A stretch of 64,000 nucleotides of DNA, from NCBI GenBank assembly GCA_035373905.1, contig DAOSOK010000009.1, positions 44,925 to 108,924 on the forward strand. Direction: 5' to 3'. The stretch comes from Candidatus Ozemobacteraceae bacterium (GTDB lineage Bacteria > Muiribacteriota > Ozemobacteria > Ozemobacterales > Ozemobacteraceae). Positions 38,331-56,009 of the stretch are shown here, piece by piece (position 1 is the first letter of the stretch; every line of letters begins with the position of its first letter). Both the position numbers and the translations under genes were made by a program. The notes beneath the pieces are model-generated. The model was not told the origin of the DNA, made no database searches, and worked only from the letters and a program-made list of their open reading frames with translations.

Positions 38331-39812
38331 ATGCGTGTTTTCCGTTTCGCCTCTTTTCTCCTGGCGGTCATTCTCTTCGCCTCCCTTGCACATCCCGTCG
38401 AGGCGGCCACGCCGTGGAAGCGCCAGATGCGGATCGGCCTGTATCACCTGGGCGTGCCGCGCCAGTTCCAGGTGACCTCGGCCGACGGCCCGCTCGAGGT
38501 CTACGACCCGTTCAGCCGGACCGTTCTTCTCGCTGGTCCCGCATCGTCGGCGACCGTCATCTGCCTGAACGGCCACATGCAGGTCTCGATGCCCATGCAC
38601 GGCAGCGTCGCCGCCCCGTATCCCCTCGTGTTTTCCTCCCTCGGCCGCCGGAAGCCGGCCCTTCATATCTCCACGCCGCCGTATCGCGGAGAAACCTACC
38701 GGGGTTCGCTCGCCGTGGCCCCCTGGCGCGACCGCCTGTTCGCCGTCAACCTCGTCGATCTCGAAGAGTATCTCCGCTCCGTCGTCCCGGCCGAAATCGG
38801 CGGAAAGGCCCCGACGTCAGCGCTCGAAGCCCAGGCCGTCGCGGCCCGCTCGTATGCCCTCCGGAACCACCGCCGGCACGCCCCCAACGGCTTCGACCTC
38901 TGCGACGAGGTCCACTGCCAGGTCTACCGCGGCCTGCGCACCGAATCCGTTCCGTCGGGCCAGGCCGTCCAGCGAACGGCCGGCTGGGTACTCACCCACG
39001 GAGCCTACCTCGCCAACACCGTGTATCACGCGAACTGCGGCGGCCACCTTGCCTCATCGCAGGACGTCTGGAAAGGCGCCCCCGTTCCCTATCTCACCGG
39101 ACATCCCGACCGCATCGGCAGTCACGGGTTCTTCTGCGCTCCAGAGGAACAGAAGTCCGCCCCCGATTCGAAATCCCCCGCTGCAAAACCGGGCAAGACC
39201 GCCCCTGCAGCGGCTTCGAGCCACACCAGGAACCCGACGGAAAAGGCCGTTCGCCTCTCAACCGCAATGACCGGCCATCTCGCGCGCCACCCGAGCCGCG
39301 GTCACCGTGTCGGCCTTTGCCAGGACGGTGCGATCGGCATGGCAAAGGCCGGCTACAACGGCGCCGCCATCCTGAACTTTTACTACCCCGGGACGAACCT
39401 CTGCGTGATCTCGTCCAATCTCCAGCTCGCGCAGATGACGACAACCCCCTCTGCCCCATCCGCTCCTCCCGCCGCTCCCAGGTTCGGCTCGGGGGAAACA
39501 CGGTCGACAACGGCTGTCCGCAGGGCCACGCCGGCCAGGCACCAGCCCACGGAGCGCATCGCCAGGACCCCGGCGGCATCTTCCGAACCGAACGCCTTTT
39601 CCCTGAATCTCCGGAAGTGGTTCTGGACAGCATTGTCGCCCCACGCTTCGCCCTCCGACACGAAGATCGCCTCTGCCCCTCTCCCGAAAGCCGACCGGAA
39701 GAAAATCTCCGGCGAACCGAAGAAAAAAATCCTCCTCTCCTCGGCCATCCGCACCCCGAAAGGCGGCGGCAGGAGCTCGAGCAAATCCACACGCAGGAAC
39801 GCACGCCGATGA
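38331..39812 (+). CDS. SpoIID/LytB-domain lytic transglycosylase-like protein with a basic low-complexity tail
   Basis: VNLVDLEEYLRSVVPAE, ALEAQAVAARSYA, DLCDEVHCQVY, GHRVGLCQDGA...ILNFYYPG; signal peptide from MRVFRF. Confidence 0.85.
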   Translation: MRVFRFASFLLAVILFASLAHPVEAATPWKRQMRIGLYHLGVPRQFQVTSADGPLEVYDPFSRTVLLAGPASSATVICLNGHMQVSMPMHGSVAAPYPLVFSSLGRRKPALHISTPPYRGETYRGSLAVAPWRDRLFAVNLVDLEEYLRSVVPAEIGGKAPTSALEAQAVAARSYALRNHRRHAPNGFDLCDEVHCQVYRGLRTESVPSGQAVQRTAGWVLTHGAYLANTVYHANCGGHLASSQDVWKGAPVPYLTGHPDRIGSHGFFCAPEEQKSAPDSKSPAAKPGKTAPAAASSHTRNPTEKAVRLSTAMTGHLARHPSRGHRVGLCQDGAIGMAKAGYNGAAILNFYYPGTNLCVISSNLQLAQMTTTPSAPSAPPAAPRFGSGETRSTTAVRRATPARHQPTERIARTPAASSEPNAFSLNLRKWFWTALSPHASPSDTKIASAPLPKADRKKISGEPKKKILLSSAIRTPKGGGRSSSKSTRRNARR

Positions 39813-41509
39813 TCTCCGAACTCCAACTCGAACACTTCCTCTTCATGCCGGACGCCCATATCGAGTTCACGCCCGGCCTCAACGTCATCACCGGCGAAAC
39901 GGGCGCCGGCAAGAGCATCCTGCTCGAAGCCGTCAAGCTCATCCTCGGGAAAAAAGCCCGCAGCGGCCTTGTCCTTCCCGGCAGGCCGTCCGCCCGCCTT
40001 CAGGCCCGCTTCGACCTGTCCGGCGAGCCGGCCCTCAAGAGCCGGCTCGCCGACGCCGGGCTTCTGAACGACGACGATCCCGACACGCTGCTGATCTCAC
40101 GCACCTTCAAGGCGGAGGGCAGCGACAAGCTCCTGATCAACGGCATCATGACGACGTCGGCGGCCCTGCGCGACCTGGGCGGTCTGTTGATGGAGATCCA
40201 CGGCCAGAACGAGCACCAGACCCTGCTCGTCCCCGAGGTCCAGCGGCACCTGCTCGACCGGATGGGCGGCGACGCGCATCAGAAGCTGCTGACCGTCCTC
40301 TCCTCGGCATATACCGAGCACGAGCGCATCCGACGCGAGCTCGAGCATCTCGAGCAGCGTCTGGAATCTGGCGCCGCGAGGCTCGACCAGGTGAACGCCG
40401 CCCTCCAGGACCTCGAGGCTCTCCGGCTGACCGACCCGGCCGAAGAGGAGCAGCTCAAGGAGGAGTGTCACAAGCTCGCGCACGCCGAACAGCTGTCTGA
40501 ATCTATAGCTGACGTTATCCATGCTCTCGAGGGCGACGACGAGGAGAGTGGCGCGCTCAGGAGCCTCCATCGGGCCCGGGAAGCCGCCGTGAAGGCGGGA
40601 GGAATCGATCCCCGGCTCATGCCCTTCGCCGAGAGGCTCGAAGCCCTGTATTATGAAGCAAGTGATATAGAAAGCAGTTTCCGTCGCGAAGCGGACGTCG
40701 AATACGATCCGAAGCGACTCTCCCTCGTTCAATCCCGCCTCTCCGCCTTCCAGCAGGCGTGCCGTCGTCACCGCACAGATTTCACAGGGCTATTCGGCCT
40801 GATCGAGAGCATGAAACGCGAAGTCGCCGAACTCACCGCGCCGGACTCGACCCGGAACAGGCTGAAGCATGCCCTCACAGAGGCCGCGACCCACTTGGCG
40901 AAAGCCGCCGGCGATGTGACGAAAGCCCGGAAAGCGATTGCCGCCCGTCTCGAAAAGCAGGTTTCAACGGTCATGGAGCAGCTCGGGTTCAATGCCGCCC
41001 GCTTTACCATCGAGATGAAGCCCGTTCAGATCGGGCCGGCCGGCCAGGAGAGCATCGAGTTTCTCGTCGCGCTCAATCCAGGCGCTCCAGGCGGCCCGCT
41101 CCGCAAGATCGCCTCTGGGGGCGAGTTGTCCCGCGTCGCGCTCGCGCTCAAGCAGGTCCTCGCCGAAGGCGACGACCTGCCGACCCTGTTGTTCGACGAG
41201 ATCGACGCAGGGATCGGCGGCACAACGGCAGAAGCGGTCGCCGAAAGTCTCGAGCGGCTTTCGCGAAAGAAGCAGGTGGTGCTGGTGACGCACCTTCACC
41301 AGATCGCCAAGGAGGCGGACAGGCACTTCACGGTCACCAAGCAGGTGGTCGGAGGCGAGACCGTCGTCAGGATCGGGGAGGTTCGCAAATCCGAGCGCGA
41401 GGCAGAGATCGCCCGAATGCTCGGCCGCACGGGAGCCGAAGGCCTAGCCTTCGCGAAGGCCCTTTTGCGCCGAGAACAGGCTCCCAAAGCGGATGCGCGG
41501 GCCTCATAG
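39809..41509 (+). CDS. recN: DNA repair protein RecN
   Basis: Start ATG 39809 (MISELQL); ITGETGAGKS, IHGQNEHQ, IASGGELSR, LFDEIDAGIGG, VTHLHQIA. Confidence 0.95.
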   Translation: MISELQLEHFLFMPDAHIEFTPGLNVITGETGAGKSILLEAVKLILGKKARSGLVLPGRPSARLQARFDLSGEPALKSRLADAGLLNDDDPDTLLISRTFKAEGSDKLLINGIMTTSAALRDLGGLLMEIHGQNEHQTLLVPEVQRHLLDRMGGDAHQKLLTVLSSAYTEHERIRRELEHLEQRLESGAARLDQVNAALQDLEALRLTDPAEEEQLKEECHKLAHAEQLSESIADVIHALEGDDEESGALRSLHRAREAAVKAGGIDPRLMPFAERLEALYYEASDIESSFRREADVEYDPKRLSLVQSRLSAFQQACRRHRTDFTGLFGLIESMKREVAELTAPDSTRNRLKHALTEAATHLAKAAGDVTKARKAIAARLEKQVSTVMEQLGFNAARFTIEMKPVQIGPAGQESIEFLVALNPGAPGGPLRKIASGGELSRVALALKQVLAEGDDLPTLLFDEIDAGIGGTTAEAVAESLERLSRKKQVVLVTHLHQIAKEADRHFTVTKQVVGGETVVRIGEVRKSEREAEIARMLGRTGAEGLAFAKALLRREQAPKADARAS

Positions 41510-41622
41510 CGGGGAAAAGGTGAATTTTCCTCATTTTTTTTTGCCGTACCCCTTGCGCATACCGTAAAAAATATGTTACAAGATTAGCACCATCACATCA
41601 TTCTGATCGAGGAGGTTCCCCC

Positions 41623-41904
41623 GTGAACAAGCAGGATCTCTTGAAGACCGTCGCTAAGAAGGCCGCCATCACCAACGTCGAATCCGAAGCCGTCCTGAAG
41701 GCTTTTGTTGATTCCGTCAAAGACACCCTGAAGAAGGGTGACAAGGTTCAGCTGGTCGGCTTCGGTTCCTTCGTGACCGTGAAGCGCGCGGCTCGCAAGG
41801 GTGTCAACCCCAAGACCAAGAAGGCCATCAATATCCCGGCCAAGCCCGTTGCCAAGTTCGTCCCCGGCAAGGAGCTGAAGGACCAGGTCAACAAGGGTAA
41901 ATAA
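41623..41904 (+). CDS. hup: HU-family nucleoid DNA-binding protein
   Basis: MNKQDLL...GDKVQLVGFGSF...RKGVNPKT...KFVPGKELKD; strong RBS GAGGAGG; GTG start. Confidence 0.95.
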   Translation: MNKQDLLKTVAKKAAITNVESEAVLKAFVDSVKDTLKKGDKVQLVGFGSFVTVKRAARKGVNPKTKKAINIPAKPVAKFVPGKELKDQVNKGK

Positions 41905-41959: not shown

Positions 41960-42355
41960 TTATTTGAATCGTTCGTATGGAATTCCGCCCACAGACGTGC
42001 CACGACTCGACGAGCGGACCTCGAATAGGCCGTCGCGACTCAGCACCGTCCAGTCGGCGTTTCCCGTCATGGGATCTCTGTAGATCCGCCGCAGAAACCG
42101 CCGCCCTTCCCCGTCGCGGCATAGTTCGTCGAGGGTAAGCGGTTGGCGGCCGTTCGCCGCCGCGAAGCGTTCCGCCGCACGGCGGAACTCCCCGAGGGCG
42201 AACCGCAGTTCATCCTCTTTTGCCCGCCGAGCCTCGTTGTTCGCCCGAGGCAAAATGAGCGACAGGGAAAAACCCAGGATGAGAAGGACGACGGTCAGCG
42301 ACAGCAAGGCGACGCCCCGCCTTTCCCCCTTCCCGCGCAGGTCACCACGCGGCAT
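41960..42355 (-). CDS. Type II secretion / type IV pilin-like minor pseudopilin
   Basis: Class III-like signal RRG|VALLSLTVVLL (no Glu5); RAKEDELRFALGEFRRA...LTLDEL...FLRRIYRDPMTG; start taken at MPRGDL. Confidence 0.7.
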   Translation of the reverse strand: MPRGDLRGKGERRGVALLSLTVVLLILGFSLSLILPRANNEARRAKEDELRFALGEFRRAAERFAAANGRQPLTLDELCRDGEGRRFLRRIYRDPMTGNADWTVLSRDGLFEVRSSSRGTSVGGIPYERFK

Positions 42356-42728
42356 AGGCGCTCCCGTCGCTCGATGCCCCGGTCGCGCCGGAGCGGATGT
42401 CGAACACGTCGGCAAGGCCGTCTTCGGAGGGGATCGTTTTCCACGTATCGGTCTTTCCCGTGATGGGATCGGCGGGGATCGAGCGAATGTATCCATCCCG
42501 GACGAGGGCGTCGAGACCTTCCGGCCAGGCGCCGCGGTCGCGATAATACTGGTCGAGCACCTTGCGCATGACGTGCAGATCCTCTTTCAGCGCGATCTCG
42601 CGGGTTTTCTGGATCGTCGAGCCGTACATGGGGGCAACGGTGAAATACAGAATGCCGATGATGGCGACGACCACGCTCATCTCGATGAGCGTGAAACCGC
42701 GCGCCCGCTTTCTCAGACAGCATCTCAT
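42342..42728 (-). CDS. GspG-like pseudopilin
   Basis: RG|FTLIEMSVVVAIIGIL N-methylation motif; YYRDRGAWPEGLDALVRDGYIRSIPADPIT. Confidence 0.85.
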   Translation of the reverse strand: MRCCLRKRARGFTLIEMSVVVAIIGILYFTVAPMYGSTIQKTREIALKEDLHVMRKVLDQYYRDRGAWPEGLDALVRDGYIRSIPADPITGKTDTWKTIPSEDGLADVFDIRSGATGASSDGSAYAAW

Positions 42729-43765
42729 GCGCTCTTCACCCCGCGGTACATCGCCATGAACGCTTCGATGACCTCCTTGGGCATGCCGTCCCGAACGAGA
42801 CCCCCGGCGCTCTGCTCGAACGTGATGCTGCCTTCTCCGGCACTTCGCATGTTCGGTTCAATCTGATTGACGCGCCCCTTCTGGAGAATGCCGCTGATGG
42901 TGGAGTTCGACACGAGCAATTCGTGAATCGGCTTGAGTTGTTTCTGCCCTGGATGCAGAAGAAGCGCCTGGGAACAGACGCCGAGCAGCCCGTTGGCCAG
43001 AACGTTGCCGATATAGGAACGATCGCTTTCCGGGAAGGCAAACAGAATTTTTTCGAGCGTGTTCTGGACGCCGAGCGTCTGCATCGACAGAATGACCAGG
43101 TGCCCCCCCGCGAGATAGTCCAAAATGCCGCGGTACGGCAGTTCGCGCTTGAGATCGCCGATCACGAGGGCATCCACATCCATCCGCTTGGCGAAGGTGA
43201 GGCCGGATTCGATGGACTGGAGATCCTTTCCAAACTGTCGCTGGGTGATGCGGGCCTTCTTCGACTCGAACGAAAACTCGATGGGATCTTCGATCAGCAG
43301 GATATGCGCGGGTCGCGTCTGATTGATTCTTTCGACGAACGCCCCGAGCGAGGTCGAGATCCCGGATCGGCATGGCCCCGCGAAGATGAACAGTCCCGCT
43401 TTCGCCTGGGTCAACGGTTCGAGAGCCGCCGGAATGCCTATGTCGGCGAAACTCGGAACGGCTTTCCGGATGAGCTTGACGATCGCCATCGTTTCCGACT
43501 GCGCCTGGAAGAGAATCAAACGGTAGTTGCAGGGCGGGTTTCCGAAGAAGTTGCCTTCGAATGAGCGCTGCTGAGCGAACTTCGTCTGATCGGCGGGCGT
43601 CAGACATTCCTTCACGATGCCGTTGATGTCCGCGCTCTGAACGGCAGGCATCGAGAGTTTGCGGAGAAACTTGTTCTGTCTGAAGAGCGGAGGGGAGCCG
43701 ACTTTCAGATGAATCTCGGTTCCGCCCTGTTCCATGACCGTTGTCATCAGCTGTTTCAGTTCCAT
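42725..43765 (-). CDS. PilT-like protein, catalytically degenerate
   Basis: PilT N-domain (EIHLKVGSPPLFR), IEDPIE; Walker A GPCRSGIST (Lys lost), Walker B VIGDLK, His box HLVILSMQT. Confidence 0.8.
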   Translation of the reverse strand: MELKQLMTTVMEQGGTEIHLKVGSPPLFRQNKFLRKLSMPAVQSADINGIVKECLTPADQTKFAQQRSFEGNFFGNPPCNYRLILFQAQSETMAIVKLIRKAVPSFADIGIPAALEPLTQAKAGLFIFAGPCRSGISTSLGAFVERINQTRPAHILLIEDPIEFSFESKKARITQRQFGKDLQSIESGLTFAKRMDVDALVIGDLKRELPYRGILDYLAGGHLVILSMQTLGVQNTLEKILFAFPESDRSYIGNVLANGLLGVCSQALLLHPGQKQLKPIHELLVSNSTISGILQKGRVNQIEPNMRSAGEGSITFEQSAGGLVRDGMPKEVIEAFMAMYRGVKSA

Positions 43766-43772
43766 GACACCC

Positions 43773-44834
43773 TCACTTCCGCGTGAACCGGCCCGTCATC
43801 TCGTGCGGATCGTCTGCGTAGGCGATCGCCGTCTGGGGCGTTATCAGGTTTTTCTGGACCATCGAGGCCAGGTGGCGGTCGAAGGTCTGCATGCCGGAAG
43901 CGTTGTCCTGTTCCTGGATCGTCCGGAGCATGACGAGATTTTCGTTTCTGATCAGGGTCTTGACCTGGGGAGTGTTCACGAGAATGTCGAAGGCGGCGGT
44001 TCGTCCGTGGTTATCGAACTTCGGCACCAGCTTTTGGCCGATGACCATGGAAACGTGCGTCGCCAGCTTTCCCTTGAGACCATCCCGCTCGGCCGCCTGC
44101 CGCGAATAGATGATCCGCTCGAGAATCTGCGAACAGCTCCCGCCGTCGGTCGCACCGATGACCATGCAGCCCGACTCGCACAGGAACAGGGCCTCGTCGA
44201 GCGCGTCGCTGTAGTTGAGCGAATCGGTGACCACCACGTCGGGATCGAGCCGGTATGCGGCGGACAGCCCGCTGTAAAAGTTCGGCACGTCGAGCGGGAT
44301 CGCGCGCTGAATGAAGGTGGACCGGTCATCCTTGAACTTGATCTCGACCGGGTTCTCGACGGTGATGATGTTCTTTTCGAAGTGCGTGTTGATGAAATCG
44401 AGAAGCGAGGCGATCGTCGTCGTCTTTCCGTGCCCCGACGGACTTCCGACGATGACGAGACCGGACGTCTTTGCCAGCGATTTCTTGATCGGATCCGGCA
44501 GTCCGAGTTCGGCGAATTTCGGCGGCGTCATGGGGATGACGCGAATGGAGAGGGCGAACTTGCCGCGGTCGAAAAAGACGGAAAAACGGTATCTGCCTTC
44601 GGTGCCGCGCTCCCATGCGTAGTTCACCTGACGATGCTTCCCGAGGATCTCCCGGGCGCGCGGAGAACTGGTGGCGAGGATGATCTTCTTCACGTCGTCT
44701 TCGGAAAATTCCGTGCCGACCATCTTCTGCAGAACGCCGTTCACCCGGATAAAGGGATTTTCACCGGGGTAGATGTGGAGATCGGACGCCTTGCTCGCGG
44801 CGATCTCGTTCAGGATCCTGTATAACGTTTCCAT
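43773..44834 (-). CDS. PilT-like protein, degenerate Walker B and His box
   Basis: ASDLHI, GSPSGHGKTT intact; VENPVE, DPDVVVTDSL (Glu lost), CMVIGATDG (His residues lost). Confidence 0.8.
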   Translation of the reverse strand: METLYRILNEIAASKASDLHIYPGENPFIRVNGVLQKMVGTEFSEDDVKKIILATSSPRAREILGKHRQVNYAWERGTEGRYRFSVFFDRGKFALSIRVIPMTPPKFAELGLPDPIKKSLAKTSGLVIVGSPSGHGKTTTIASLLDFINTHFEKNIITVENPVEIKFKDDRSTFIQRAIPLDVPNFYSGLSAAYRLDPDVVVTDSLNYSDALDEALFLCESGCMVIGATDGGSCSQILERIIYSRQAAERDGLKGKLATHVSMVIGQKLVPKFDNHGRTAAFDILVNTPQVKTLIRNENLVMLRTIQEQDNASGMQTFDRHLASMVQKNLITPQTAIAYADDPHEMTGRFTRK

Positions 44835-44918
44835 TCCAGAGACCTCTCTCGGTCGAATGTCGGATCAGTCGTTCTCCCCTATCGGCAGGAAGCGACGAAA
44901 CGTACACGGTCCTTCCGG

Positions 44919-47093
44919 TCAATCTTCGAGTTTCTGCAGAAGCTCTTCGACGTTGCGGAATACGCGGCTGTCGGGGGGAAGGCTTTTCTTCAGCTCCTTG
45001 AGGAGCCTGAGCGCAGAGGCGTGCTCCCTGACCGCGTAATACGAGAGGGCAAGGTGGTAGCAGGACGACAGGTCGCGGGCGTTCTCGCGGATCGCCAGGT
45101 TCAGCGACTCGATCGCCTTCTGGTATTTCTTGAGGTGGAAGTAGGCAAGGCCCAGCGCGCCGTGAACCTGGCCAAGGGTTTTCCGGTCCTCGGCGGGGAT
45201 GTGCTTGCGGATGCGCTCGTAGAGTTCGAGCAGGGGCGTCCACTGCTTCTTCCGGAAATAAATCTGTCCGAGCATCAGGGCCCCGGCGACATGGGACGGC
45301 GTTTTCTCCATGAGCGTCGTCAGGCAGGGCAACGCCTTGTCGGGCTCGTTCCGCTTGAAATGCACCTGCGCCAGGTTGTAGAGGGCTTCAGGATGCTGAG
45401 GGAAGGCGGCGGCGAACCGCTCGAAGAACGCCAGCGCATCGCCAAGCCGGCCGCTTTCCATGAGGGCAACGCCCTGGGAAAGAGAATCTAAACTTATCGA
45501 TATATTCTGAGGCGCGCCGGGGGGCATGCCGAGGCCGGCGACGCCTTCCATATCTTTCGCGACTTCGACGGCGAGCGACTCGCGCAGGCGCGTCGAGTAT
45601 TCGTCGACGTTCTTGATGAACGCTCCGATGTCTCCCGAGACGCGGATGAGGGGAAGGAGCTCGTCATCTCTCGTCTTCTCGCCAAGAAGGGACGCCAGCT
45701 CGGCGAAGACGGACAGGTCGCCATGGAGCAGCAGGGCGATGTAGAATTCGCGCATGTTTTCTTCGCTCGCGGCGCCGACGAACCGCTTGGCTTCGGCGAT
45801 GGCCTCGCGGGCGTCGAGGTGGCCGAGGGCGGAGATCAGGCGCGGCAGGCCTTCCTCCGGCTCGGATTTGATCTTCTGCAAGATCAGCGGGACGCACGCG
45901 TTCGCATGACGCTCGACGAAGAAGGCGAGCATGCTTTCCCAGACCGGGGGGGCGGATTCGTCCTTGAACGCATCGAGCACCTGCTGAACGGGAAAGCCGG
46001 GCACCTTGCGGGCACAGTCGACGGCCTCGCGCCGCACCCACTGGTTCGGATCGCGAAGCAGAGGAACGATGCGGCTCTGGCCGACTTCGGTCTCAAGCGC
46101 GAGTACCGCCTTCAGGGCCATCTTGCGAACGACGTAGGCTTCGTCGGCAAGCAGGCGGTCGATGAGAGCGTCGCGGCCCTTGATGTGGACCCGTGACAGC
46201 ACGTAAGCCGCCGAACGCCTGGTCGGGATGTCGGTGCTCGCGAGCATCGCATCCACTTCCTCGATCACTTTCGTCTCGTCGGCCTTTGCGAGCGCGATGC
46301 AGACGTTGGCGCGGACGCGGTTGTTCGGATGGGAAAAGAACTTTTTCAGCTTGCGACGCATTTCGAGCGCGGGAATCTTCAGCATCGCGATGGCCTCAAC
46401 CGCATTCGCCTGGATGCGCGGATCGAACGACTCGAGGCCCTTCTCGAAGATGTGGAGCAGTTGCGGCTCCGCGAACGTGGCGAGGGAGGAGATCATGATG
46501 GCTTTCAGCCGCGGATCTCGGGCGATCTCGAACTGGCCGACCAGGGCCGGGATCGCTTCGGCTTCCTTGAGTCGCGACAGGATCTCGAGGACGTTGATGA
46601 CGATCCATTCGTCGGGGTCGGAAAGAAGCCTGCAGAGGCTCTGCGCCACGTCTCGGCCGCCGATGCGGTAGAGCGCCCAGGCGGCCTCGTAGCGAACCAT
46701 GCGGTCCTCGTCGCGGAGAAGTTCCATGAGCTTCTTGCCGGCCATGGGATCGCCGATCACGCCGAGCACGCGGACGATCTCCTCTTTGAAGGGGTGTTCG
46801 GGATCGTCGAGAAGTTCGAGGAGGCGCTGAACCGGCGTGCTGTCGCGCAGGTGGCCGAGGGCCGTGATCGGCTCGATCCGTTCGGGCCAGCCGTCGAGGG
46901 CGTTGCACATGACGTCGAGAACGGCCGGGTCGCCGATCTTGCCGAGCGCAAGAAGCGCCTCGGTCTTCAGCTCTTCGGCGGCGCCGGGACTCAGTACGGT
47001 CGCCGAGAGCCGCTCGGTCACGGGGCGAAACAGTCGTCGGGCGGCCTTGATGAAGCGGAAGGGTTCGATCTCGTGAAGGTCGGCCCCGGTCAT
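44919..47093 (-). CDS. HEAT(PBS-lyase-like)-repeat plus C-terminal TPR protein
   Basis: Repeated units (DEDRMVRYEAAWAL, DPRIQANAVEAI, PNNRVRANVCIAL), then TPRs (EALYNLAQVHF, GALGLAYFHLKKYQKA). Confidence 0.85.
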   Translation of the reverse strand: MTGADLHEIEPFRFIKAARRLFRPVTERLSATVLSPGAAEELKTEALLALGKIGDPAVLDVMCNALDGWPERIEPITALGHLRDSTPVQRLLELLDDPEHPFKEEIVRVLGVIGDPMAGKKLMELLRDEDRMVRYEAAWALYRIGGRDVAQSLCRLLSDPDEWIVINVLEILSRLKEAEAIPALVGQFEIARDPRLKAIMISSLATFAEPQLLHIFEKGLESFDPRIQANAVEAIAMLKIPALEMRRKLKKFFSHPNNRVRANVCIALAKADETKVIEEVDAMLASTDIPTRRSAAYVLSRVHIKGRDALIDRLLADEAYVVRKMALKAVLALETEVGQSRIVPLLRDPNQWVRREAVDCARKVPGFPVQQVLDAFKDESAPPVWESMLAFFVERHANACVPLILQKIKSEPEEGLPRLISALGHLDAREAIAEAKRFVGAASEENMREFYIALLLHGDLSVFAELASLLGEKTRDDELLPLIRVSGDIGAFIKNVDEYSTRLRESLAVEVAKDMEGVAGLGMPPGAPQNISISLDSLSQGVALMESGRLGDALAFFERFAAAFPQHPEALYNLAQVHFKRNEPDKALPCLTTLMEKTPSHVAGALMLGQIYFRKKQWTPLLELYERIRKHIPAEDRKTLGQVHGALGLAYFHLKKYQKAIESLNLAIRENARDLSSCYHLALSYYAVREHASALRLLKELKKSLPPDSRVFRNVEELLQKLED

Positions 47094-48127
47094 TCCACGA
47101 TCTCCTTGAGAATGGTGTTGATGATTTTCCCATCGACCCGTTCGTCGCGCATCAACTCGGCCAGGTTGTCGCGAAGGGTGACGCAGCCCTCCTTGCGGGC
47201 AAGCATCAGGGCCGAACGGAGCTGATTCGTCTTTTTTTCGCGGATCAGGTTGCGCATCGCCGAGTTGAGGATCATCAGTTCGTAGGCCATAATGCGCTCG
47301 TTCTTCGACCGGCCCGGGATCAGGATCTGGGAGATCGTGCCGAGCAGGGACATCGAGAGCTGGGTCCTGATTTCCTCGTGCCGGTGGCCCGGGAAGACGT
47401 TGATGATGCGGTCGACCGTCTGGACGGCGCCGACGGTGTGCAGGGTCGCGAGAACGAGGTGGCCGGTTTCTGCGGCGGTCAGCACCATCTCGATCGTGTC
47501 GATGTCGCGCATCTCGCCGACGAGAATGACGTCGGGATCCTCGCGGAGCGCATGCATCAGGGCGACCTGGTATCCTGACGTCATCGAGCCGATTTCGCGC
47601 TGGGTGAAGATCGAGCGCTTCGGCGCATGGATGAACTCGATCGGGTCCTCGATCGTGATGATGTGCCGCGAGCTGGCCTTGTTGATCTCATGCACGATCG
47701 CGGCGAGGGTGTGGGTCTTTCCCGAGTTGGCCGGGCCGGTGACGATGAACAGGCCGCGGGGCCGCTGGGCGATTTCCTTGAGCCGCACCGGCAGTTTGAG
47801 TCCGTCGATGCTCGGAACGCGGGTCGGAATGAACCGGAACGCCGCCGAGAGACAGCCGCGTTGCCGGAAGACGCAGACGCGCACTCTGACGCGGTCGCGG
47901 TACGCGATCATGAAGTTGGCTTCCATCGTCTCGCGCAGAAACTCCTGTTGGCGCGTATCCATCAACGGGAGAACGAGGTTCGGCATTTCCTGGTGCGCGA
48001 GGGGTTCCTCCGAGAGCGGCACGAGCCGGCCGCCGATGCGCAGCACGGGGGGGCTGCCGGCCTTGAGGTGCAGGTCGGAGGCCTTGCGCGCGAGAGCCGT
48101 GTCGAAATATCGGTGAATACGCAACAT
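47090..48127 (-). CDS. pilT: PilT-family retraction ATPase (intact motifs)
   Basis: GPANSGKT, IEDPIE, REDPDVILVGEMRD, GHLVLATLHT, AMRNLIRE. Confidence 0.9.
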   Translation of the reverse strand: MLRIHRYFDTALARKASDLHLKAGSPPVLRIGGRLVPLSEEPLAHQEMPNLVLPLMDTRQQEFLRETMEANFMIAYRDRVRVRVCVFRQRGCLSAAFRFIPTRVPSIDGLKLPVRLKEIAQRPRGLFIVTGPANSGKTHTLAAIVHEINKASSRHIITIEDPIEFIHAPKRSIFTQREIGSMTSGYQVALMHALREDPDVILVGEMRDIDTIEMVLTAAETGHLVLATLHTVGAVQTVDRIINVFPGHRHEEIRTQLSMSLLGTISQILIPGRSKNERIMAYELMILNSAMRNLIREKKTNQLRSALMLARKEGCVTLRDNLAELMRDERVDGKIINTILKEIVE

Positions 48128-48133
48128 CCGGCT

Positions 48134-49204
48134 CTACTCCTTTCCGCCAAGCAGTTTGCGCAGGGCGGCGGGGTTGGGCGCCGCGGCCAGCGCGTCCTCG
48201 GCACGGACCTTGTTTTGCCTGACGAGCGAGGCGAGCGACATTTCCAGCGTCGTCATGCCGAACTCCGAACCGGTTTCGAGGAACGACGGGATCAGGTGGA
48301 TCTTGCCCTCGCCGATCAGCGACCGGATCGCCGAGGTGTTGATCAGCACCTCGAACGCGGCGACCCGCCCGCCGTCGATCTTCGGCAGCAGCGTTTGGGA
48401 GACGACGCCGCGCAGGACCGTCGCGAGCTGGTGCAGGATCTGCCGTTGCTGGTTCTCGGGGAACACGTTGACGATGCGCTCGGCCGTCAGCACCGCCGAC
48501 GTGGTGTGAAGCGTGGCCAGCACGAGTTTGCCGGTTTCGGCCGCGTTCAGGGTCAGCGCGATGGTTTTCGGTTCGCGCATCTCGCCGACGACAACGATGT
48601 CGGGATCCTGGCGGAGGACGGTCAGCAGGCCCTCGTAAAAGCCCAGGCAGTCGCTTCCGACCTGGCGCTGGTTGAAGATCGAGAGGCCGTCTTCGAACTG
48701 GTATTCGATCGGATCCTCTATGGTGACGATGTGCCGGCGCGCCTGGGCGTTCACGTAGCTGAGGTAGCTGGCCAGGGTGGAGGTCTTGCCGGCACCGGTC
48801 GGGCCGGTGATGAGAATCAGGCCGTTGGGCTGTTCGATGAGCTTCTGTGCCGCCAGCGGCAGGCCGATCTCGTCGAAGCTCATCACCTTGAAGGGAATCA
48901 CGCGAAACACGGCGCCGACGCCGTTGATGTCGCGATAGAGATTCACCCGGAACCGGCAGACGCCTTCGAGGGAGTAGGCGAAATCCAGTTCGTTCGTTTC
49001 GGCGAACTGCTTCGCCTGCGCTTCCGTCAGGATCGCCTCAAGAACCCGGGCGAACTCGTTCTTGGTAAACCTCGCAGCGGCGAGATGCTCGATGACCCCG
49101 TCGACGCGGATGGCGGGCGCCTGACCGACCTTCAGGTGCAGATCCGAACCCCGGCGCTCGAACGTCAGTTTCAACAGTTCATACAGACTTGTTCCGGCAC
49201 TCAT
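48134..49204 (-). CDS. pilT: PilT-family retraction ATPase (largely intact motifs)
   Basis: GPTGAGKT, IEDPIE, RQDPDIVVVGEMRE, GKLVLATLHT, AIRSLIGE. Confidence 0.9.
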   Translation of the reverse strand: MSAGTSLYELLKLTFERRGSDLHLKVGQAPAIRVDGVIEHLAAARFTKNEFARVLEAILTEAQAKQFAETNELDFAYSLEGVCRFRVNLYRDINGVGAVFRVIPFKVMSFDEIGLPLAAQKLIEQPNGLILITGPTGAGKTSTLASYLSYVNAQARRHIVTIEDPIEYQFEDGLSIFNQRQVGSDCLGFYEGLLTVLRQDPDIVVVGEMREPKTIALTLNAAETGKLVLATLHTTSAVLTAERIVNVFPENQQRQILHQLATVLRGVVSQTLLPKIDGGRVAAFEVLINTSAIRSLIGEGKIHLIPSFLETGSEFGMTTLEMSLASLVRQNKVRAEDALAAAPNPAALRKLLGGKE

Positions 49205-49210
49205 ATCCGA

Positions 49211-49219
49211 AGTATAGCA
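49211..49219 (-). promoter_or_regulatory. Extended -10 promoter (TG-C-TATACT), 6 nt before the pilT ATG, candidate leaderless
   Basis: Minus strand tgctatact tcggat ATG. Confidence 0.6.
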
Positions 49220-49307
49220 CGAGTATCTCCGCGACTATGCAGGAAACGACCGCCATGATAAACTTTGCTCCGGTCGATCCCAAACCATTCATACCAGGAC
49301 AAATCCG

Positions 49308-51635
49308 ATGGCGAAGATCCAGCTCGAACAACTGCTCACCAGGCTCCGTCCCCTTCTCGCCACTCTGATCACCGGCTTCAAAACCGGCGAATACCGGCTT
49401 CGCAGGGAAGCGGCGATCGCGCTTTCCAAGTTCAAGTGCGAGCGCGCGACGAACTTTCTGCTCGAGAATTTCGAGAGCGACAACATCCAGGACTTCATGG
49501 CGCTCGCTCTCGGAAACATCGAAAGCTCCCGGGCCATCTCCCTGCTGATGCAGGCGCTCAACGACTCACAGCAGGAAGTCCGTTTCAACGCCGCCCAGGC
49601 GCTCGGCATGATCAAGAGCCCGGAAGCCTTCAACGTGCTGATGGAGTCCCTGAACGAGTACGCCGACACCAATATCTCCGGCGGCGCGGCCACGAGCGGC
49701 GGCGGGAAGATTTTCTTCGAAGAGGAAGCCATCATCTCAGCCATCAACGCTTTGGGCAAGATCAAGAACAATCTATCGACACCGCTCCTGAAACGCATTC
49801 TCGCCCAGGACAAGAGCCCCCGCATTCGCGCCTCGATCATCATGGCCCTCGGCATGATGTCGAACGAACGCATGCTCCCGATCTTTCAGGCGGCCCTCCG
49901 CGACGAGGATTCGCGGGTGCGGGCGAATGCGATCGAAGCAATCGAAGGTCTCAAATCGAGTTCTATTGTTGGAATTATACAACCATACCTCGACGACCCG
50001 AACAACCGCGTGCGGGCGAACGTGGCGAAGGCCATCTGGAAGTTCGGCGACTTCGACGTTTCCGACACCCTCATCCAGATGCTGACGCACGCCGACAAGC
50101 TGTATCGCGCCTCGGCCGCGTATGCGCTCGGCGAGATCCGCGACGTCCGCTTCATCCCGAAACTGGCCATGGCGCTTCGCGACGACGACGCCGACGTCCG
50201 GCGGAACGCGGCGAACGCCCTCAAGAAACTCCAGTCTCCCGACGCCGTCAAGTTGCTCACGCCGCTCCTGGACGACCCCAACTACGACGTGCGCGTACAG
50301 GTCGTCCAGGCGATCGTCCGCTGCTCCCCGTCGTCGATTCCCGAACTGCTCGTCCCGCGCCTCGAGAGCGAAGAGAACCCGATCGTCAAGGCGACTCTCA
50401 TCAGCTGTATCGCGGAAACCTCCGATCAGCAGTATACCGAACTGCTGTTCAAGTTTCTCGAAGACCCCGACAGCCGCGTCGTCTCCAACACGATCGAGGC
50501 CCTTCAGAAACTCAATAAATCGGCCCCGCCCCAGAAGCTCACCACCCTTCTCAAGCGCCTGCTGTCTCACGAGGACAACCGCATCAAGACGAACGCCATC
50601 CGCGCCCTCTGGAGCTGGAACGAGTACAGCGTCCTCGACAACCTGCACCAGCTTCTGAACCACTCGGAACTCCGGCACCGCCAGTCGGCCATGTATGTCC
50701 TCGGCGAAATCGGAACGGCCCTCAGCAACGACCCGTCCGTCACCACATCGGCGAACACGCTCATCGCGGAGCTTCTGGAGCCGGGGGCCGCGGAATCGGC
50801 CGCCGCCGTTCCGGCCCAGCTCGCCGACCCCCCCGCGCCGGAAGCCCCGCCGACCGTTCAGCCGCAGGCAAAACCGGCGCCGGCAGCGGAGCCGGCCCCT
50901 GCCCCACCCCAGACGGAGACTCCGGTTTCCGAACCGCCCGCCGAAACCTTCGACCAGGAGCTGGAGCAGGCTGCGAACGCCGTCAATGCCCGCGAATTCG
51001 AACAGGCGCTGGCAATTTACACTTCGATCATCGAGGCCCAGCCCGACAACTTCAAGGCGATTCTCGGCCTGGCGAACCTGCAGTACATCCGGAAAAACTT
51101 TGCCGACGCCGCGCCCCTGTATGAAAAAGCGCTGGCCCAGCAGCCCAACCTGGTCAAGGCGCATTACAACCTCGGAACGATCGCCTACTTCCAGAAGGAC
51201 TTCCAGAAGGCCCGCGATCATCTCGTCAAGGCCCTGACCCTGTATCCGAAACTCCTCGGCGCCTATCTGATCCTCGCCCAGATCTTCCAGTTCGGCGGCC
51301 GCACCGAAGAGAGCATCAAGCTCCTGACCAAGGCCGTCGAACTCTCGCCCCGCAACCCCGTGCTGTTCCAGAAGCTCGCGATGCTCCACCTTCACGCGCG
51401 CAACTTCGACCAGGCCACGGAAGTCCTCACCCGCGCGATCTCGCTTTCCCCGCTCGACATCGAGTCGAACCTGCTTCTCGCCTACTGTCTGCAGGCGACG
51501 TCACGGTCGGCCGAGGCGTTCAAGGCCTTCGACGCGACGCTCAAAGCCTGCGCCCAGTCGCCGAACCAGGACGAATCGCTCAAGGCTCTCATGCAGAGTT
51601 ACCTGTTCGTGAAATCAACGCTCAAAGAGTCCTGA
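49308..51635 (+). CDS. HEAT-repeat plus C-terminal TPR protein (paralogue of 44919-47093)
   Basis: DEDSRVRANAIEAI, DPNNRVRANVAKAI, DDDADVRRNAANAL; Pro/Ala linker; TPRs (VKAHYNLGTIAYF). Confidence 0.85.
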   Translation: MAKIQLEQLLTRLRPLLATLITGFKTGEYRLRREAAIALSKFKCERATNFLLENFESDNIQDFMALALGNIESSRAISLLMQALNDSQQEVRFNAAQALGMIKSPEAFNVLMESLNEYADTNISGGAATSGGGKIFFEEEAIISAINALGKIKNNLSTPLLKRILAQDKSPRIRASIIMALGMMSNERMLPIFQAALRDEDSRVRANAIEAIEGLKSSSIVGIIQPYLDDPNNRVRANVAKAIWKFGDFDVSDTLIQMLTHADKLYRASAAYALGEIRDVRFIPKLAMALRDDDADVRRNAANALKKLQSPDAVKLLTPLLDDPNYDVRVQVVQAIVRCSPSSIPELLVPRLESEENPIVKATLISCIAETSDQQYTELLFKFLEDPDSRVVSNTIEALQKLNKSAPPQKLTTLLKRLLSHEDNRIKTNAIRALWSWNEYSVLDNLHQLLNHSELRHRQSAMYVLGEIGTALSNDPSVTTSANTLIAELLEPGAAESAAAVPAQLADPPAPEAPPTVQPQAKPAPAAEPAPAPPQTETPVSEPPAETFDQELEQAANAVNAREFEQALAIYTSIIEAQPDNFKAILGLANLQYIRKNFADAAPLYEKALAQQPNLVKAHYNLGTIAYFQKDFQKARDHLVKALTLYPKLLGAYLILAQIFQFGGRTEESIKLLTKAVELSPRNPVLFQKLAMLHLHARNFDQATEVLTRAISLSPLDIESNLLLAYCLQATSRSAEAFKAFDATLKACAQSPNQDESLKALMQSYLFVKSTLKES

Positions 51636-51863: not shown

Positions 51864-53972
51864 ATGCCTTCGAAGAATCGTATACAGGATACAATCACCC
51901 TCGATACGGACATCAGTCTCCTGCGCGGGATCGGGCCCAAACGCGGGGAAACCCTGCGCGCCGCCGGCATTCGCACCGTCGCCGACCTTCTTCGCCTCCA
52001 GCCGCGCCGTTACGAGGACCGCACCCGCATCCGCCCGCTCCGTGAACTTCGCGTGGAACGTCTCCTGCAGGGCCCGTTCAGGGCCGAGGTGAAATCCTTC
52101 CGCGGAAGCAGGCCGCGCGCGGGCCTCTCGATCGTGTGGGCCGAGTTCGACGACGGAACGGCCGTCGTGCGGGCCCGGTGGTTCAACCGCCCGTATCTCG
52201 TCAAGACGCTCGTCGTCGGCAAAGCCTACTTTCTGTACGGCACCGCCGTCGAGATGAAGGGCGTCCCGATCCTCGACAATCCCGAGCTCGAGCTCGAGGA
52301 CCCCGCGGAAACCGCGCCCGTTCCCGGCGCCCTCACTCCCGTCTATTCCGCCGGAAAAGCGTTTGCCGAGGCGAAGCTGTCGGGAAGGCAGATCCGCCAG
52401 CTGATCGCGCGCACCCTCACAACGATCGACTGGGCCGCGAGTTTCCCGAACCTGCTCGAGTCCGGTCCCTTCCCGCGGCTCCGGCGCGCCTTTTTCGATT
52501 TTCACTGGCCCCGCACGCAGGAGGCCGCCGATCACGCTCGCCACACGGCGGCCTTCTTCGACCAGGTCCTGTTCCAGATGGCTGTCTGGCAGAGGCGCAA
52601 ACGCATCACCGGCATCCTCGGCCCTGATCCGGCCTCTGCCGTCGCACCGCCGGCCGCCGAACCCGGGTATCCCATCCCGTTCCGGCTGACGCGGGACCAA
52701 AGCCTGGTTCTCGGAAAGATGCTCGCCGGACTTCGACGGGGGGCCGACGGCCCTCCTCTCAATCTGCTCCTCCAGGGTGACGTCGGCTCGGGAAAGACGC
52801 TGGTGGCCTTTCTCGCCATGCGGCATCACGCCGAGCGCCACGAACCCGGCGCCACCTGCGTGTTCATGGCCCCGACCGAAATCCTGGCGAGACAGCACCT
52901 GGAGCGGTTCCAATCGTTCTTTCCCGACGCCGCGGCCGGCTCCGATCTTCTCATCGGCGCCCTCCGGCCGCAGGACCGGCGGAACCTGCTCTCAAAGCTC
53001 TCAAATGGGAAACTCCGCTACCTGTTCGGCACCCATGCGCTGTTCCAGGACGCCGTCATCGTCCCGAATCTCGCCTTCTGCGTCATCGACGAGCAGCAGC
53101 GGTTCGGGGTCGATCACCGTCGCGCGCTCACGGCCAAGGCGGGCTCGCGGACGCCGCACCTGCTGCTCATGTCGGCGACGCCAATTCCCCGCACCCTCTC
53201 GCTGACGATCTACGGCGATCTCGATGTCGGCATCATCCGTGAGATGCCGCCGGGCAGAAAACCGGTCACAACCACCCTGCTCAGCTCGCCGGAGGACGCC
53301 TTCCCGTACATCCGGGAAGCGGTGTCGCGCCGGGAGCAGGTGTATTACGTCTGCCCGCTCATCGAGACATCGAAGAAGCTTGCCGCAACATCGGTTCGCG
53401 AAGCCGTCGAGCGGCTTCGCTCCGCGTTTCCCAACGCCACCGTCGCCGCGGTAACCGGCGACCTGGCTTCGGACCGCCGCCAGGCCGCAATGGAGGCGTT
53501 TCATGCCGGAAACATCGACGTTCTTGTTGCCACGACGGTCATCGAGGTCGGGGTGGACGCGCCGGCGGCGACGCTGATGGTGGTCGAGAACGCCGAGCGG
53601 TTCGGGCTTTCGCAGCTGCACCAGCTTCGAGGCCGGGTCGGCCGGGGCGACCGCTCGTCGAGCTGTCTGCTGATAAGCGCCGACGGCGAGGCGAACGAGC
53701 GGCTCCGGCTGGTTGCAGGCACGACCGACGGTTTCGAACTCGCCGCCGAGGATTTGCGTCTGCGAGGCCCGGGCGATCTGGCCGGAACGCGTCAGAGCGG
53801 CATCGCCCACCCCGCTTTTTCGCACCGCATGACCCCGGAGCTGATCGAGAAGGCGCGAAACCGCGCCCTCGAGCTGCTCACCGTCGAGCCCGACGAGACG
53901 CGCGCCTGGTTTGCCGCCCGCATGCGCGAGAGTTTCGGCGACCGGCTCGAAACATTCATGGAAGGGGGCTGA
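51864..53972 (+). CDS. recG: ATP-dependent DNA helicase RecG
   Basis: LLQGDVGSGKT, MAPTEILARQH, VIDEQQRFG, MSATPIPRTL, ERFGLSQLHQLRGRVGRG, DLRLRGPG. Confidence 0.97.
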   Translation: MPSKNRIQDTITLDTDISLLRGIGPKRGETLRAAGIRTVADLLRLQPRRYEDRTRIRPLRELRVERLLQGPFRAEVKSFRGSRPRAGLSIVWAEFDDGTAVVRARWFNRPYLVKTLVVGKAYFLYGTAVEMKGVPILDNPELELEDPAETAPVPGALTPVYSAGKAFAEAKLSGRQIRQLIARTLTTIDWAASFPNLLESGPFPRLRRAFFDFHWPRTQEAADHARHTAAFFDQVLFQMAVWQRRKRITGILGPDPASAVAPPAAEPGYPIPFRLTRDQSLVLGKMLAGLRRGADGPPLNLLLQGDVGSGKTLVAFLAMRHHAERHEPGATCVFMAPTEILARQHLERFQSFFPDAAAGSDLLIGALRPQDRRNLLSKLSNGKLRYLFGTHALFQDAVIVPNLAFCVIDEQQRFGVDHRRALTAKAGSRTPHLLLMSATPIPRTLSLTIYGDLDVGIIREMPPGRKPVTTTLLSSPEDAFPYIREAVSRREQVYYVCPLIETSKKLAATSVREAVERLRSAFPNATVAAVTGDLASDRRQAAMEAFHAGNIDVLVATTVIEVGVDAPAATLMVVENAERFGLSQLHQLRGRVGRGDRSSSCLLISADGEANERLRLVAGTTDGFELAAEDLRLRGPGDLAGTRQSGIAHPAFSHRMTPELIEKARNRALELLTVEPDETRAWFAARMRESFGDRLETFMEGG

Positions 53973-53978
53973 CCGCAG

Positions 53979-54539
53979 ATGCGCGTCATTTCAGGATCGG
54001 CCAAAGGCCGTCAACTCAAGATGCCCAAGGGGGGAAAAACCCGCCCGGCGATGGACCGCGTGAAGAGCTCGCTGTTCTCGATTCTTGCCGCCCGCATTCC
54101 CGACTGCCGGTTTCTCGACCTGTTCGCAGGTTCGGGAAGTCTCGGCATCGAGGCGCTTTCGCGCGGCGCGGCGTTCGCCGCGTTCGTCGACATGTCGAAC
54201 GACTGCATCACGGCAATTCGCGAGAATCTCGAGATGACCAGGCTCGCCGACCGGGGAAAACCCTTCCGGATGGACTGCCTCTCGTTCCTGCGCGGCCGGC
54301 CGCTCGAACCTTTCGATATCGTCTGCATCGACCCGCCCTACCTGAAGGGCCTGCTCGAGCCGATCCTGAACGAGCTTCCGGTCTGCCCTCTCTTCAACGA
54401 ACGCACGATCTTCATCATCGAGCGACAAAAGAAAGACGACCTGGGCCTCGACAAGAAGCCGGCCCTCGAACAGACCGACGAGCGCCTGTTCGGCGACACC
54501 GTTCTGACGTTCTTCCGGCTGAAGAAGACCGCATCTTGA
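53979..54539 (+). CDS. rsmD: 16S rRNA m2G966 methyltransferase RsmD
   Basis: MRVISGSAKGR, TRPAMDRVK, LDLFAGSGSLGIEALSRGA, IDPPY. Confidence 0.95.
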   Translation: MRVISGSAKGRQLKMPKGGKTRPAMDRVKSSLFSILAARIPDCRFLDLFAGSGSLGIEALSRGAAFAAFVDMSNDCITAIRENLEMTRLADRGKPFRMDCLSFLRGRPLEPFDIVCIDPPYLKGLLEPILNELPVCPLFNERTIFIIERQKKDDLGLDKKPALEQTDERLFGDTVLTFFRLKKTAS

Positions 54540-54700
54540 GGCTGCCGCCCCTCCCCCGCCCGAACAGTGATTTTCTGGTCGTGCGTACAAGAACGGACAT
54601 GGCTCTCAGAGATACGCCGGTACAACATGCTCGGTGTTCCAAGACGCAACCGAATCATCAGCGTCATCTGCGGATTGGTTCTCGAGAAAGCAAAAAGAGA

Positions 54701-54728
54701 CCGGCGCCCCGGAAATCCGGGGCGCCGG
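54701..54728 (-). terminator. Intrinsic terminator for the minus-strand gene 54751-55614
   Basis: CCGGCGCCCCGG-aaat-CCGGGGCGCCGG with an A-run on the left (U-tail on the minus strand). Confidence 0.7.
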
Positions 54729-54750
54729 CTTGTTGTATTCGGGAGGGGGA

Positions 54751-55614: not shown

Positions 55615-55736
55615 ACGTAACCCCCTGATAATCGCGTTACGAACGGTACACCGATTAGATAATTCAAGTGTAATGATGCAACGGGGGGGCGTCAAGGTGT
55701 CTGCCCCAAATTTGAAAATTTTCATTCAAAAAGAGA

Positions 55737-55961
55737 ATGCGGGCGGATCACGATCCTCCCTTGAACCGGACGACCGGCAATCTCGAAGCCACGTTCGCAT
55801 TCCAGCCTGCCGAAGCTCGAGAGGCTCTCGCCCTTCGAGAGGCTCAGGGCGAACGGAAGACAATCATTCTGGAGGTCACGAAAAACGAGTGGAACGAGTG
55901 GAATGATGTGCTCGCCCGGAGATACGGTCTCTCTTGTCCCGGGGTTACCCCTGTCGTATGA
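55737..55961 (+). CDS. Possible small hypothetical ORF (74 aa)
   Basis: Open frame filling the intergenic gap; weak GC3 bias; short direct repeats; may be non-coding. Confidence 0.25.
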   Translation: MRADHDPPLNRTTGNLEATFAFQPAEAREALALREAQGERKTIILEVTKNEWNEWNDVLARRYGLSCPGVTPVV

Positions 55962-56009
55962 TGTACACAGATTCGAGGTGTTACCTTACCTTCATGACCG
56001 GAGGCAATC

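Follow-up and report, generated by a model that had tools for sequence, protein, structure and literature searches.

In the studied PilT/PilU systems of type IVa pili (V. cholerae, A. baylyi, P. aeruginosa), two PilT-family paralogues are encoded in tandem within one operon, and both partners are active enzymes. PilU can still drive retraction when PilT is ATPase-dead, and each of the two proteins assembles into its own homohexamer, which interacts with that of the other (PMC6821130); PilT has also been described as bridging PilU to the machine (bioRxiv 10.1101/2025.10.30.685630). In Geobacter sulfurreducens, the Walker B Glu and the Walker A Lys are present in all four PilTs (PilT1–4), as are the Asp and His boxes (PMC5065972). 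Together with Myxococcus xanthus, which has PilT and four paralogues including PilU, this species exemplifies genomes with several PilT paralogues for which a division of labor has been proposed. In Myxococcus, the cytoplasmic TPR protein SgmX has been put forward as a recruiter or activator of a pilus ATPase, acting on PilB and not on PilT. Here we describe a locus in a 64,000-nucleotide stretch of DNA from Candidatus Riflebacteria (Ozemobacteraceae; assembly GCA_035373905.1, contig DAOSOK010000009.1; this whole stretch is called the window) that contains exactly four PilT-family copies by tblastn. They lie on the minus strand in a tightly packed run from 41960 to 49204 that reads pilT-A, pilT-B (A and B below), the HEAT/TPR gene H1, the pilT-like genes C and D, and two small pilins, ps1 and ps2. 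A second HEAT/TPR gene, H2, is divergent from A.

As in a PilT/PilU pair, PilT-family paralogues stand in tandem in one operon, and A and B pass the PilT/PilU family model TIGR01420. The locus differs from such a pair in that it has four paralogues, two of which appear to be naturally and permanently dead with conserved replacement motifs, in that a HEAT and TPR protein is interleaved with them, and in that pilB, pilC, and pilMNOPQ are not nearby. It also differs from the multi-PilT genomes, whose paralogues are dispersed rather than gathered in one operon with a solenoid protein. On balance, and with modest confidence, we favor the reading that the operon encodes a composite PilT-family retraction-motor module for a type IV filament, in which the dead paralogues would be non-catalytic and H1 would serve as a scaffold.

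Conservation of the gene order across Riflebacteria

To define the set of loci, D was used as the query with one genome per species, which yielded 40 loci at 44–96% identity. Nearly all are labelled Candidatus Riflebacteria, Rifleibacteriota, Ozemobacteraceae, or unclassified "uncultured bacterium," and ordinary PilTs come next, at 25–31% identity. Mapping all eight proteins onto these loci by tblastn, we found the order A-B-H1-C-D in 30 of 40; eight more are cut by contig ends yet are consistent with it, and two are exceptions. In 30 loci, an H1 orthologue (51–95% identical) stands at this same position; 25 loci have H2 divergent from A, and ps1 and ps2 follow D in most lineages. C and D are always adjacent, even where A-B-H1 is not next to them. 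Thus, from the synteny counts and the two exceptions, which have only C-D, no unit is tighter than the C-D pair; A-B-H1-C-D forms the core, often accompanied by the pilins and H2. The synteny search that had been proposed along with the original prediction therefore finds a phylum-wide gene order rather than one unique to a single genome. We conclude that it is secure that Riflebacteria keep an ancient operon composed of two live-looking and two dead PilT paralogues and a HEAT/TPR protein.

Two details of the locus set are recorded here. In one gut-associated locus (L034), H2 and recG-rsmD are inverted together as a single block. Three loci (L035, L036, and L040) are labelled Candidatus Avigastranaerophilus (Melainabacteria) and Erysipelotrichia, yet have the Riflebacteria-type operon; the L035 copies branch within Riflebacteria clades beside reindeer and goat gut metagenome-assembled genomes, and the other two are outside the tree. 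Mis-binning or mislabelling of these contigs is the probable explanation.

Motif states and selection on the four PilT-family copies

The curated cut-off of TIGR01420 (NCBIfam) is 319.1 bits. A (413.8 bits) and B (388.6 bits) exceed it with full-length matches; C (275.6 bits) and D (209.7 bits) fall below it, yet they too match over their full length and have this model as their best family. D additionally matches solved PilT structures over its full length (E 1e-40). Pairwise identities are ~40% for A and B, 30% for A and C, 29% for A and D, and 23% for C and D. By these comparisons, C and D are of PilT fold and ancestry, though they are not members of the family by the curated threshold.

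Every catalytic residue is present in B, namely, the Walker A Lys (GPANSGKTH), the Asp-box Glu and Asp (EDPIEF), the Walker B Glu (GEMRD), and both His-box His residues (TGHLVLATLHT). In A (Walker A GPTGAGKTS, Walker B GEMRE), the first His-box His is Lys in all 30 orthologues (ETGKLV..LHT), with the other catalytic residues kept. C has the Walker A sequence SPSGHGKTT and lacks the Asp-box Asp (ENPVE for EDPIE), the Walker B Glu (VVVTDSLNY, with DSLNY in place of GEMRD), and both His-box His residues (GATDG). D retains the Asp box EDPIE and lacks the Walker A Lys (GPCRSGIST), the Walker B Glu, which is replaced by Asp (GDLK), and the second His (GGHLVILSMQT). These states hold across 30–40 orthologues, and C and D are short of the residues by which catalytic competence was judged. 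The C-terminal AIRNLIRE helix motif is a mark of PilT as opposed to PilU; A (SAIRSLIGEGK) and B (SAMRNLIREKK) are close to it, and C (PQVKTLIRNEN) and D (STISGILQKGR) have diverged. A and B look like catalytically competent retraction-type ATPases; to judge by the motifs, nucleotide binding is probably retained in C and probably lost in D. The original prediction had read both A and B as intact. This stands for their Walker A, Asp-box, and Walker B motifs, but it had overlooked the Lys in place of the first His-box His of A; its account of the losses in C (VVVTDSL, GATDG) and D (GPCRSGIST, GDLK) is borne out by the alignment.

A further feature of C lies at residues ~218–240, where the lost His box is replaced by a three-cysteine pattern, L-C-E-S-G-C-x11-G-G-x-C, in nearly all 39 orthologues. 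It is conceivable that this pattern forms a metal or redox site.

Degenerate catalytic motifs and family scores below the cut-off are also what would be seen if C and D were recently decaying duplicates, that is, pseudogenes in the making. The open reading frames (ORFs) of C and D are, however, intact in 39–40 genomes, and the "degenerate" motifs are themselves invariant. The replacement motifs of C (SPS[GC]xGK[TS][TS], ENPVE, DS[ILV]xY, and CESGC...[ST][ED]GGxC) occur in essentially all 39 orthologues and those of D (GPxRSGI[ST]T, GD[LI][KR], and GGHxVxL[ST]MQ[TS]) in essentially all 40, with the Lys→Ile change in 40 of 40. The ratio of nonsynonymous to synonymous substitution rates (dN/dS), calculated by the Nei-Gojobori method against closest relatives at unsaturated dS (0.26–0.56 overall and 0.39–0.56 for C and D), was 0.04–0.06 for C and ~0.05 for D, compared to 0.03–0.05 for A and B (0.03–0.04 for A) and 0.04–0.07 for H1. 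In a maximum-likelihood tree of the A–D orthologues that includes 45 other PilTs, each of the four paralogues is monophyletic with 100% SH-aLRT support, and their internal topologies mirror one another, indicating that all four paralogues are older than the sampled Riflebacteria. The stems of C (2.07) and D (2.24) are long relative to those of A (0.87) and B (1.02), pointing to fast early divergence of C and D followed by freezing. Intact ORFs, invariant motifs, dN/dS of 0.04–0.06, and deep monophyletic clades together rule out decay, to which we give virtually no chance. The original prediction had treated the degenerate copies as functional rather than decaying and had proposed a phylogeny of the four paralogues; the ratios, similar to those of A and B and far from 1, and the four separate, fully supported clades both agree with it.

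The two families are also well bounded. Identity to C falls from 47% to ~33% outside Riflebacteria, and among 1.84 billion cluster representatives, D has one close 50%-identity representative and one fragment. Columns conserved at ≥90% make up 32–35% of C and D and 62–66% of A and B, and the conserved blocks of C and D include the former nucleotide pocket. We conclude that C and D are, by all these measures of their sequences, conserved pseudo-ATPases under strong purifying selection.

Dead PilT-like proteins also occur elsewhere, where they are a small minority: the Walker A Lys is absent from 12, and the Walker B Glu from 13, of the 170 other PilT domains that come closest to C or D in similarity. 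One 515-aa PilT-like protein on an unrelated contig (L084:8001-10422) has the P-loop GPNRSGIST, with the same Lys→Ile change as D, and directly downstream of its gene is a PilT in which Walker A and B are canonical and the first His-box His is Lys, as in A. Tandem PilT-PilT fusions account for 13 of the top 150 representatives (P0132–P0142, P0177, and P0224; ~660–1020 aa), and a degenerate half or halves are seen in P0137 (domain 1), P0139 (domain 2), P0177, and P0224. We considered whether the fusion halves are orthologous to C or D and rejected this, as the halves are closer to A and B. Literature searches found no paper describing dead PilT-like proteins.

HEAT/TPR proteins, pilins, and the proposed filament motor

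The favored reading treats H1 as a partner of the ATPases. H1 matches Pfam HEAT_2 at 139.7 bits along with TPR families, and H2 matches HEAT_2 at 277.8 bits along with several TPR families. The two are colinear paralogues (~27% identity), and neither has a credible transmembrane segment or signal peptide. Their likeness to SgmX-type regulators is one of protein class, and H1 and H2 differ from these in combining HEAT and TPR repeats. Among long proteins matching D on unrelated metagenome contigs, 7 of 10 tested carry HEAT_2 repeats N-terminal to the PilT domain, and in both genomic contexts that were retrieved, a second PilT-family gene directly follows the fusion gene. This arrangement is suggestive of joint action by HEAT arms and PilT ATPases, and it gives independent support to the proposal in the original prediction that HEAT solenoids are partners of PilT. 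The HEAT-PilT fusions (P0154, P0156, P0190, P0199, P0208, P0231, and P0249; locus L085:1120-4720) are ~800–990 aa long. Together with the tandem PilT-PilT fusions, they contain the same domain classes as the operon, and the HEAT-PilT fusions are likewise followed by another PilT gene; they differ from the operon in being single, uncharacterized polypeptides with mostly intact motifs and no TPR part, and neither kind of fusion is orthologous to C or D. No description of HEAT-PilT fusions, or of a HEAT partner class for PilT, was found in the searchable literature.

The two adjacent pilins would tie the operon to a filament. ps1 has the prepilin motif RG|FTLIEM and a Pfam N_methyl score of 30.9 bits (cut-off 21.2). 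Its predicted structure (pLDDT 78) has as top folds Thermus PilA4 (probability 0.99), gonococcal pilin, and PulG (118 columns, TM 0.48), and its sequence aligns to PulG (5wda) over the whole length, weakly. ps2 reads RG|VALLS; it has a pilin-like N-terminal hydrophobic helix without Phe1 or Glu5, departs from the prepilin motif, and has no Pfam match. Orthologue alignment places its probable start near 42355, just before the helix. The ps2 model (pLDDT 87.4) has PulG/EpsG GspG-type pseudopilins as all of its top eight Protein Data Bank folds (probability 0.72–0.98, TM 0.41–0.50). Foldseek E-values are weak for both proteins (0.02–0.1), as expected for such small chains. Each has one strongly hydrophobic N-terminal helix and, like GspG/PulG and Thermus PilA4, is ~115–130 aa long, with a long N-terminal helix and a small beta-sheet head. 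From these models, we conclude that ps1 and ps2 are predicted small pilins of GspG/PilA4-like fold. Some ps1 orthologues (in L013, L024, and L029) have Ala for Gly at position −1 (RVA|FTLVEM, RKA|YTLIEL), which is unusual for substrates of prepilin peptidase.

The GspG resemblance raises the alternative that the module is a type II secretion system (T2SS) pseudopilus with retraction ATPases, an angle that the original prediction had taken up. In its favor are the eight GspG-type structural matches of ps2 and the full-length alignment of ps1 to PulG. On the GspG model TIGR01710 (cut-off 88.85 bits), however, ps1 scores 47.3 bits and ps2 scores 23.3 bits, both with N-terminal matches only; ps1 resembles Thermus PilA4 equally well; ps2 is without the Phe1 and Glu5 of GspG/PulG; and no T2SS gene (GspD, E, F, C, L, or M) is present among the large ORFs of the window. 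Thus, GspG-fold pilins need not mean a T2SS. The GspG-like fold stands, the paradox of a T2SS with a retraction ATPase is only apparent, and we consider a T2SS-type pseudopilus very improbable.

As we picture the composite retraction-motor module, it would control the retraction or dynamics of a type IV filament whose assembly machinery would be encoded elsewhere in the genome. C and D would be obligate non-hydrolyzing adaptor or regulatory elements. They could sit in mixed rings as subunits, or they could form rings of their own that stack on the live motors or bridge them, in the way that PilT bridges PilU. H1 would dock or localize the ATPases, and ps1 and ps2, which usually ride with the operon, could be part of the filament acted upon. 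We infer the physical interactions, the ring composition, and the pilus link alike.

Several observations weigh against this picture. In Pfam scans, none of the large ORFs of the window showed a domain of the PilB, PilC, or secretin type, as the original prediction had stated, and no alignment-complex gene is present in the 64 kb; thus, the pilus link rests on PilT family membership and the adjacent pilins. At least four gut-associated loci (L033, L034, L035, and L037) have no pilins 3′ of D, and pilin genes are dispensable neighbors of the operon. In the two exceptions to the gene order, C and D are adjacent and A-B-H1 is not nearby; one of these lineages keeps ps1, and in the other, recD2 directly abuts C-D (L038/L082). 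No pilus genes are near the HEAT-PilT fusions in the two contexts retrieved. Orthology of H1 with the HEAT arm of a fusion was considered and rejected, as the similarity (30% over 90 aa) is of the repeat class, the only level at which the fusions resemble H1. Finally, expression of C and D is represented by two 151-nt contigs within C from one complementary DNA run, which could be DNA carry-over.

Many of these points fit a different reading, in which the module is pilus-independent. The C-D pair, with or without the HEAT/TPR proteins and A and B, would have been recruited to another cytoplasmic or membrane-associated job, and the pilins would be mere neighbors; the job could, for example, be an ATP-sensing ring scaffold or one tied to the conserved DNA-metabolism neighborhood. 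This reading is consistent with the persistence of C-D in two lineages where A-B-H1 is not nearby, one of which also has no pilins there, with the gut lineages without pilins, with the HEAT-PilT and PilT pairs in contexts without pilus genes, and with the conserved flanks recG-rsmD, HU-sbcC, and recD2. Against it, A and B are genuine PilTs by score and by motifs, including the AIRNLIRE-like helix; the stop codon of D and the start codon of ps1 share a 4-nt ATGA overlap, which suggests translational coupling; the DNA-repair flanks can be explained as an inherited neighborhood; and literature searches, which were not aimed at this question, brought up no non-filament role for the PilT family. 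We regard a pilus-independent module as a minor possibility, though it is the main rival.

A third account keeps the filament and changes the role of the dead copies. C and D would be brakes: their dead rings would contend for the platform protein, either with A and B or with the extension ATPase, and so set the balance of extension and retraction instead of transmitting force. Pilus motors exchange at the platform, which lends this account some support, and control of PilB has been reviewed (PMC11656802). It is also consistent with the full-length PilT fold kept by C and D, with strong conservation around the former nucleotide pocket, and with the loss of their catalytic residues. On present data it is indistinguishable from the adaptor model, and two distinct, always paired dead paralogues exceed the needs of simple competition; we think it distinctly unlikely. 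A more specific arrangement, which we hold to be unlikely, is that C and D form an obligatory, permanently non-hydrolyzing ring derived from PilT (C3D3 or stacked C6/D6), in which C would bind ATP and act as a sensor and D would be a spacer free of nucleotide, and that this ring, with HEAT-repeat arms, would be a pseudo-motor of an unrecognized class.

Locus organization and significance

All genes between 41960 and 51635 lie where the original prediction had placed them, and their coordinates are collected in Table 1. The spacing is tight, with gaps of 6 nt between A and B, 7 nt between C and D, and 84 nt between H1 and C. In addition to the D/ps1 junction, the stop codon of B and the start codon of H1 share a 4-nt ATGA overlap, and ps1 and ps2 overlap as well. 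H2 and A are separated by a 103-nt intergenic region. The G+C content of the region is ~61%, and a scan of it found terminator-like sites at a frequency not above that of shuffled sequence. An ORF in another frame (42295–42723) is an Arg-rich artefact.

Table 1. Coordinates of the operon, of H2, and of a candidate promoter in the window.
Feature	Position	Strand	Description
H2	49308..51635	+	775 aa; cytoplasmic; HEAT_2, Pro/Ala-rich linker, and TPR; recG-rsmD downstream
Promoter match	49255..49283	-	sigma-70-like, TTGGGA-17-TATCAT; ~50 nt upstream of pilT-A; consensus scan alone, no functional evidence
pilT-A	48134..49204	-	PilT paralogue; Walker A, Asp box, and Walker B intact
pilT-B	47090..48127	-	PilT; all motifs canonical
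H1	44919..47093	-	724 aa; cytoplasmic; HEAT_2 and TPR solenoid between the live-looking and dead PilT pairs
pilT-like C	43773..44834	-	Predicted pseudo-ATPase; P-loop Lys/Thr retained
pilT-like D	42725..43765	-	Predicted pseudo-ATPase; Walker A Lys→Ile
ps1	42342..42728	-	128 aa; type IV prepilin, G|FTLIEM
ps2	41960..42355	-	Second pilin-fold protein; start uncertain, ORF extends to 42496, overlapping ps1

Transcripts cover part of the operon. In an activated-sludge metatranscriptome, we found contigs identical (100%) to parts of A, B, and H1, one of which spans the B/H1 junction, and no contigs for C or D in the same data set. The RNA contigs are too thin to support co-transcription of the whole operon.

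On the pilin side, sbcC and an HU gene are convergent with the end of the operon; on the other side, recG-rsmD lies beyond H2 and is followed by a PycTM-like gene and recD2. These DNA-metabolism flanks (38414–41904 and 51864–58796 in the window) are kept phylum-wide (L001–L039), with sbcC/HU on one side and recG-rsmD/recD2 on the other, and they may reflect inherited gene order rather than a functional link such as DNA uptake. In the sbcC-like ORF (38414–41509, plus strand, 1031 aa), SMC_N begins at residue 467, and distant orthologues align only from ~residue 460, so that either the ORF was called too long, from a GTG start, or its first ~460 aa are an extension specific to this lineage. The gene at 56010–56537 (plus strand) encodes a small membrane protein resembling Pycsar PycTM effectors (PADLOC 69 bits; Pfam 25.2 bits, just below the cut-off). 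The 328-aa ORF upstream of it (54634–55620) has no cyclase or PADLOC match, and a complete Pycsar system is not evident. A defense-system role for the operon itself was considered and set aside, as PADLOC gave just generic repeat or P-loop matches to the operon proteins.

The cooperation of several PilT-family rings at a single pilus base is under active study, and the key experiments to date relied on artificial ATPase-dead PilT mutants. In Riflebacteria, two different dead PilT paralogues are fixed beside two live ones, phylum-wide, with a dedicated HEAT/TPR partner. An operon with dead PilT paralogues is not described in the searchable literature, in which a search for pili in Riflebacteria or Ozemobacter also found nothing useful. 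Public records label C and D "ATPase, T2SS/T4P/T4SS family," "TadA," or "PilT," and no label signals catalytic disablement. By its sequence, the operon looks like a case of natural dead motor subunits serving live ones, and it would provide natural material on the role of a non-catalytic PilT ring as bridge, brake, sensor, or spacer. In addition, the HEAT-PilT fusions suggest that PilT ATPases have a class of partner proteins. If C and D do form a pseudo-motor ring, this ring would either add extra tiers to a pilus retraction motor or do pilus-independent work, and its design would recur, in other versions, in the HEAT-PilT and PilT-PilT fusions of other uncultured lineages.

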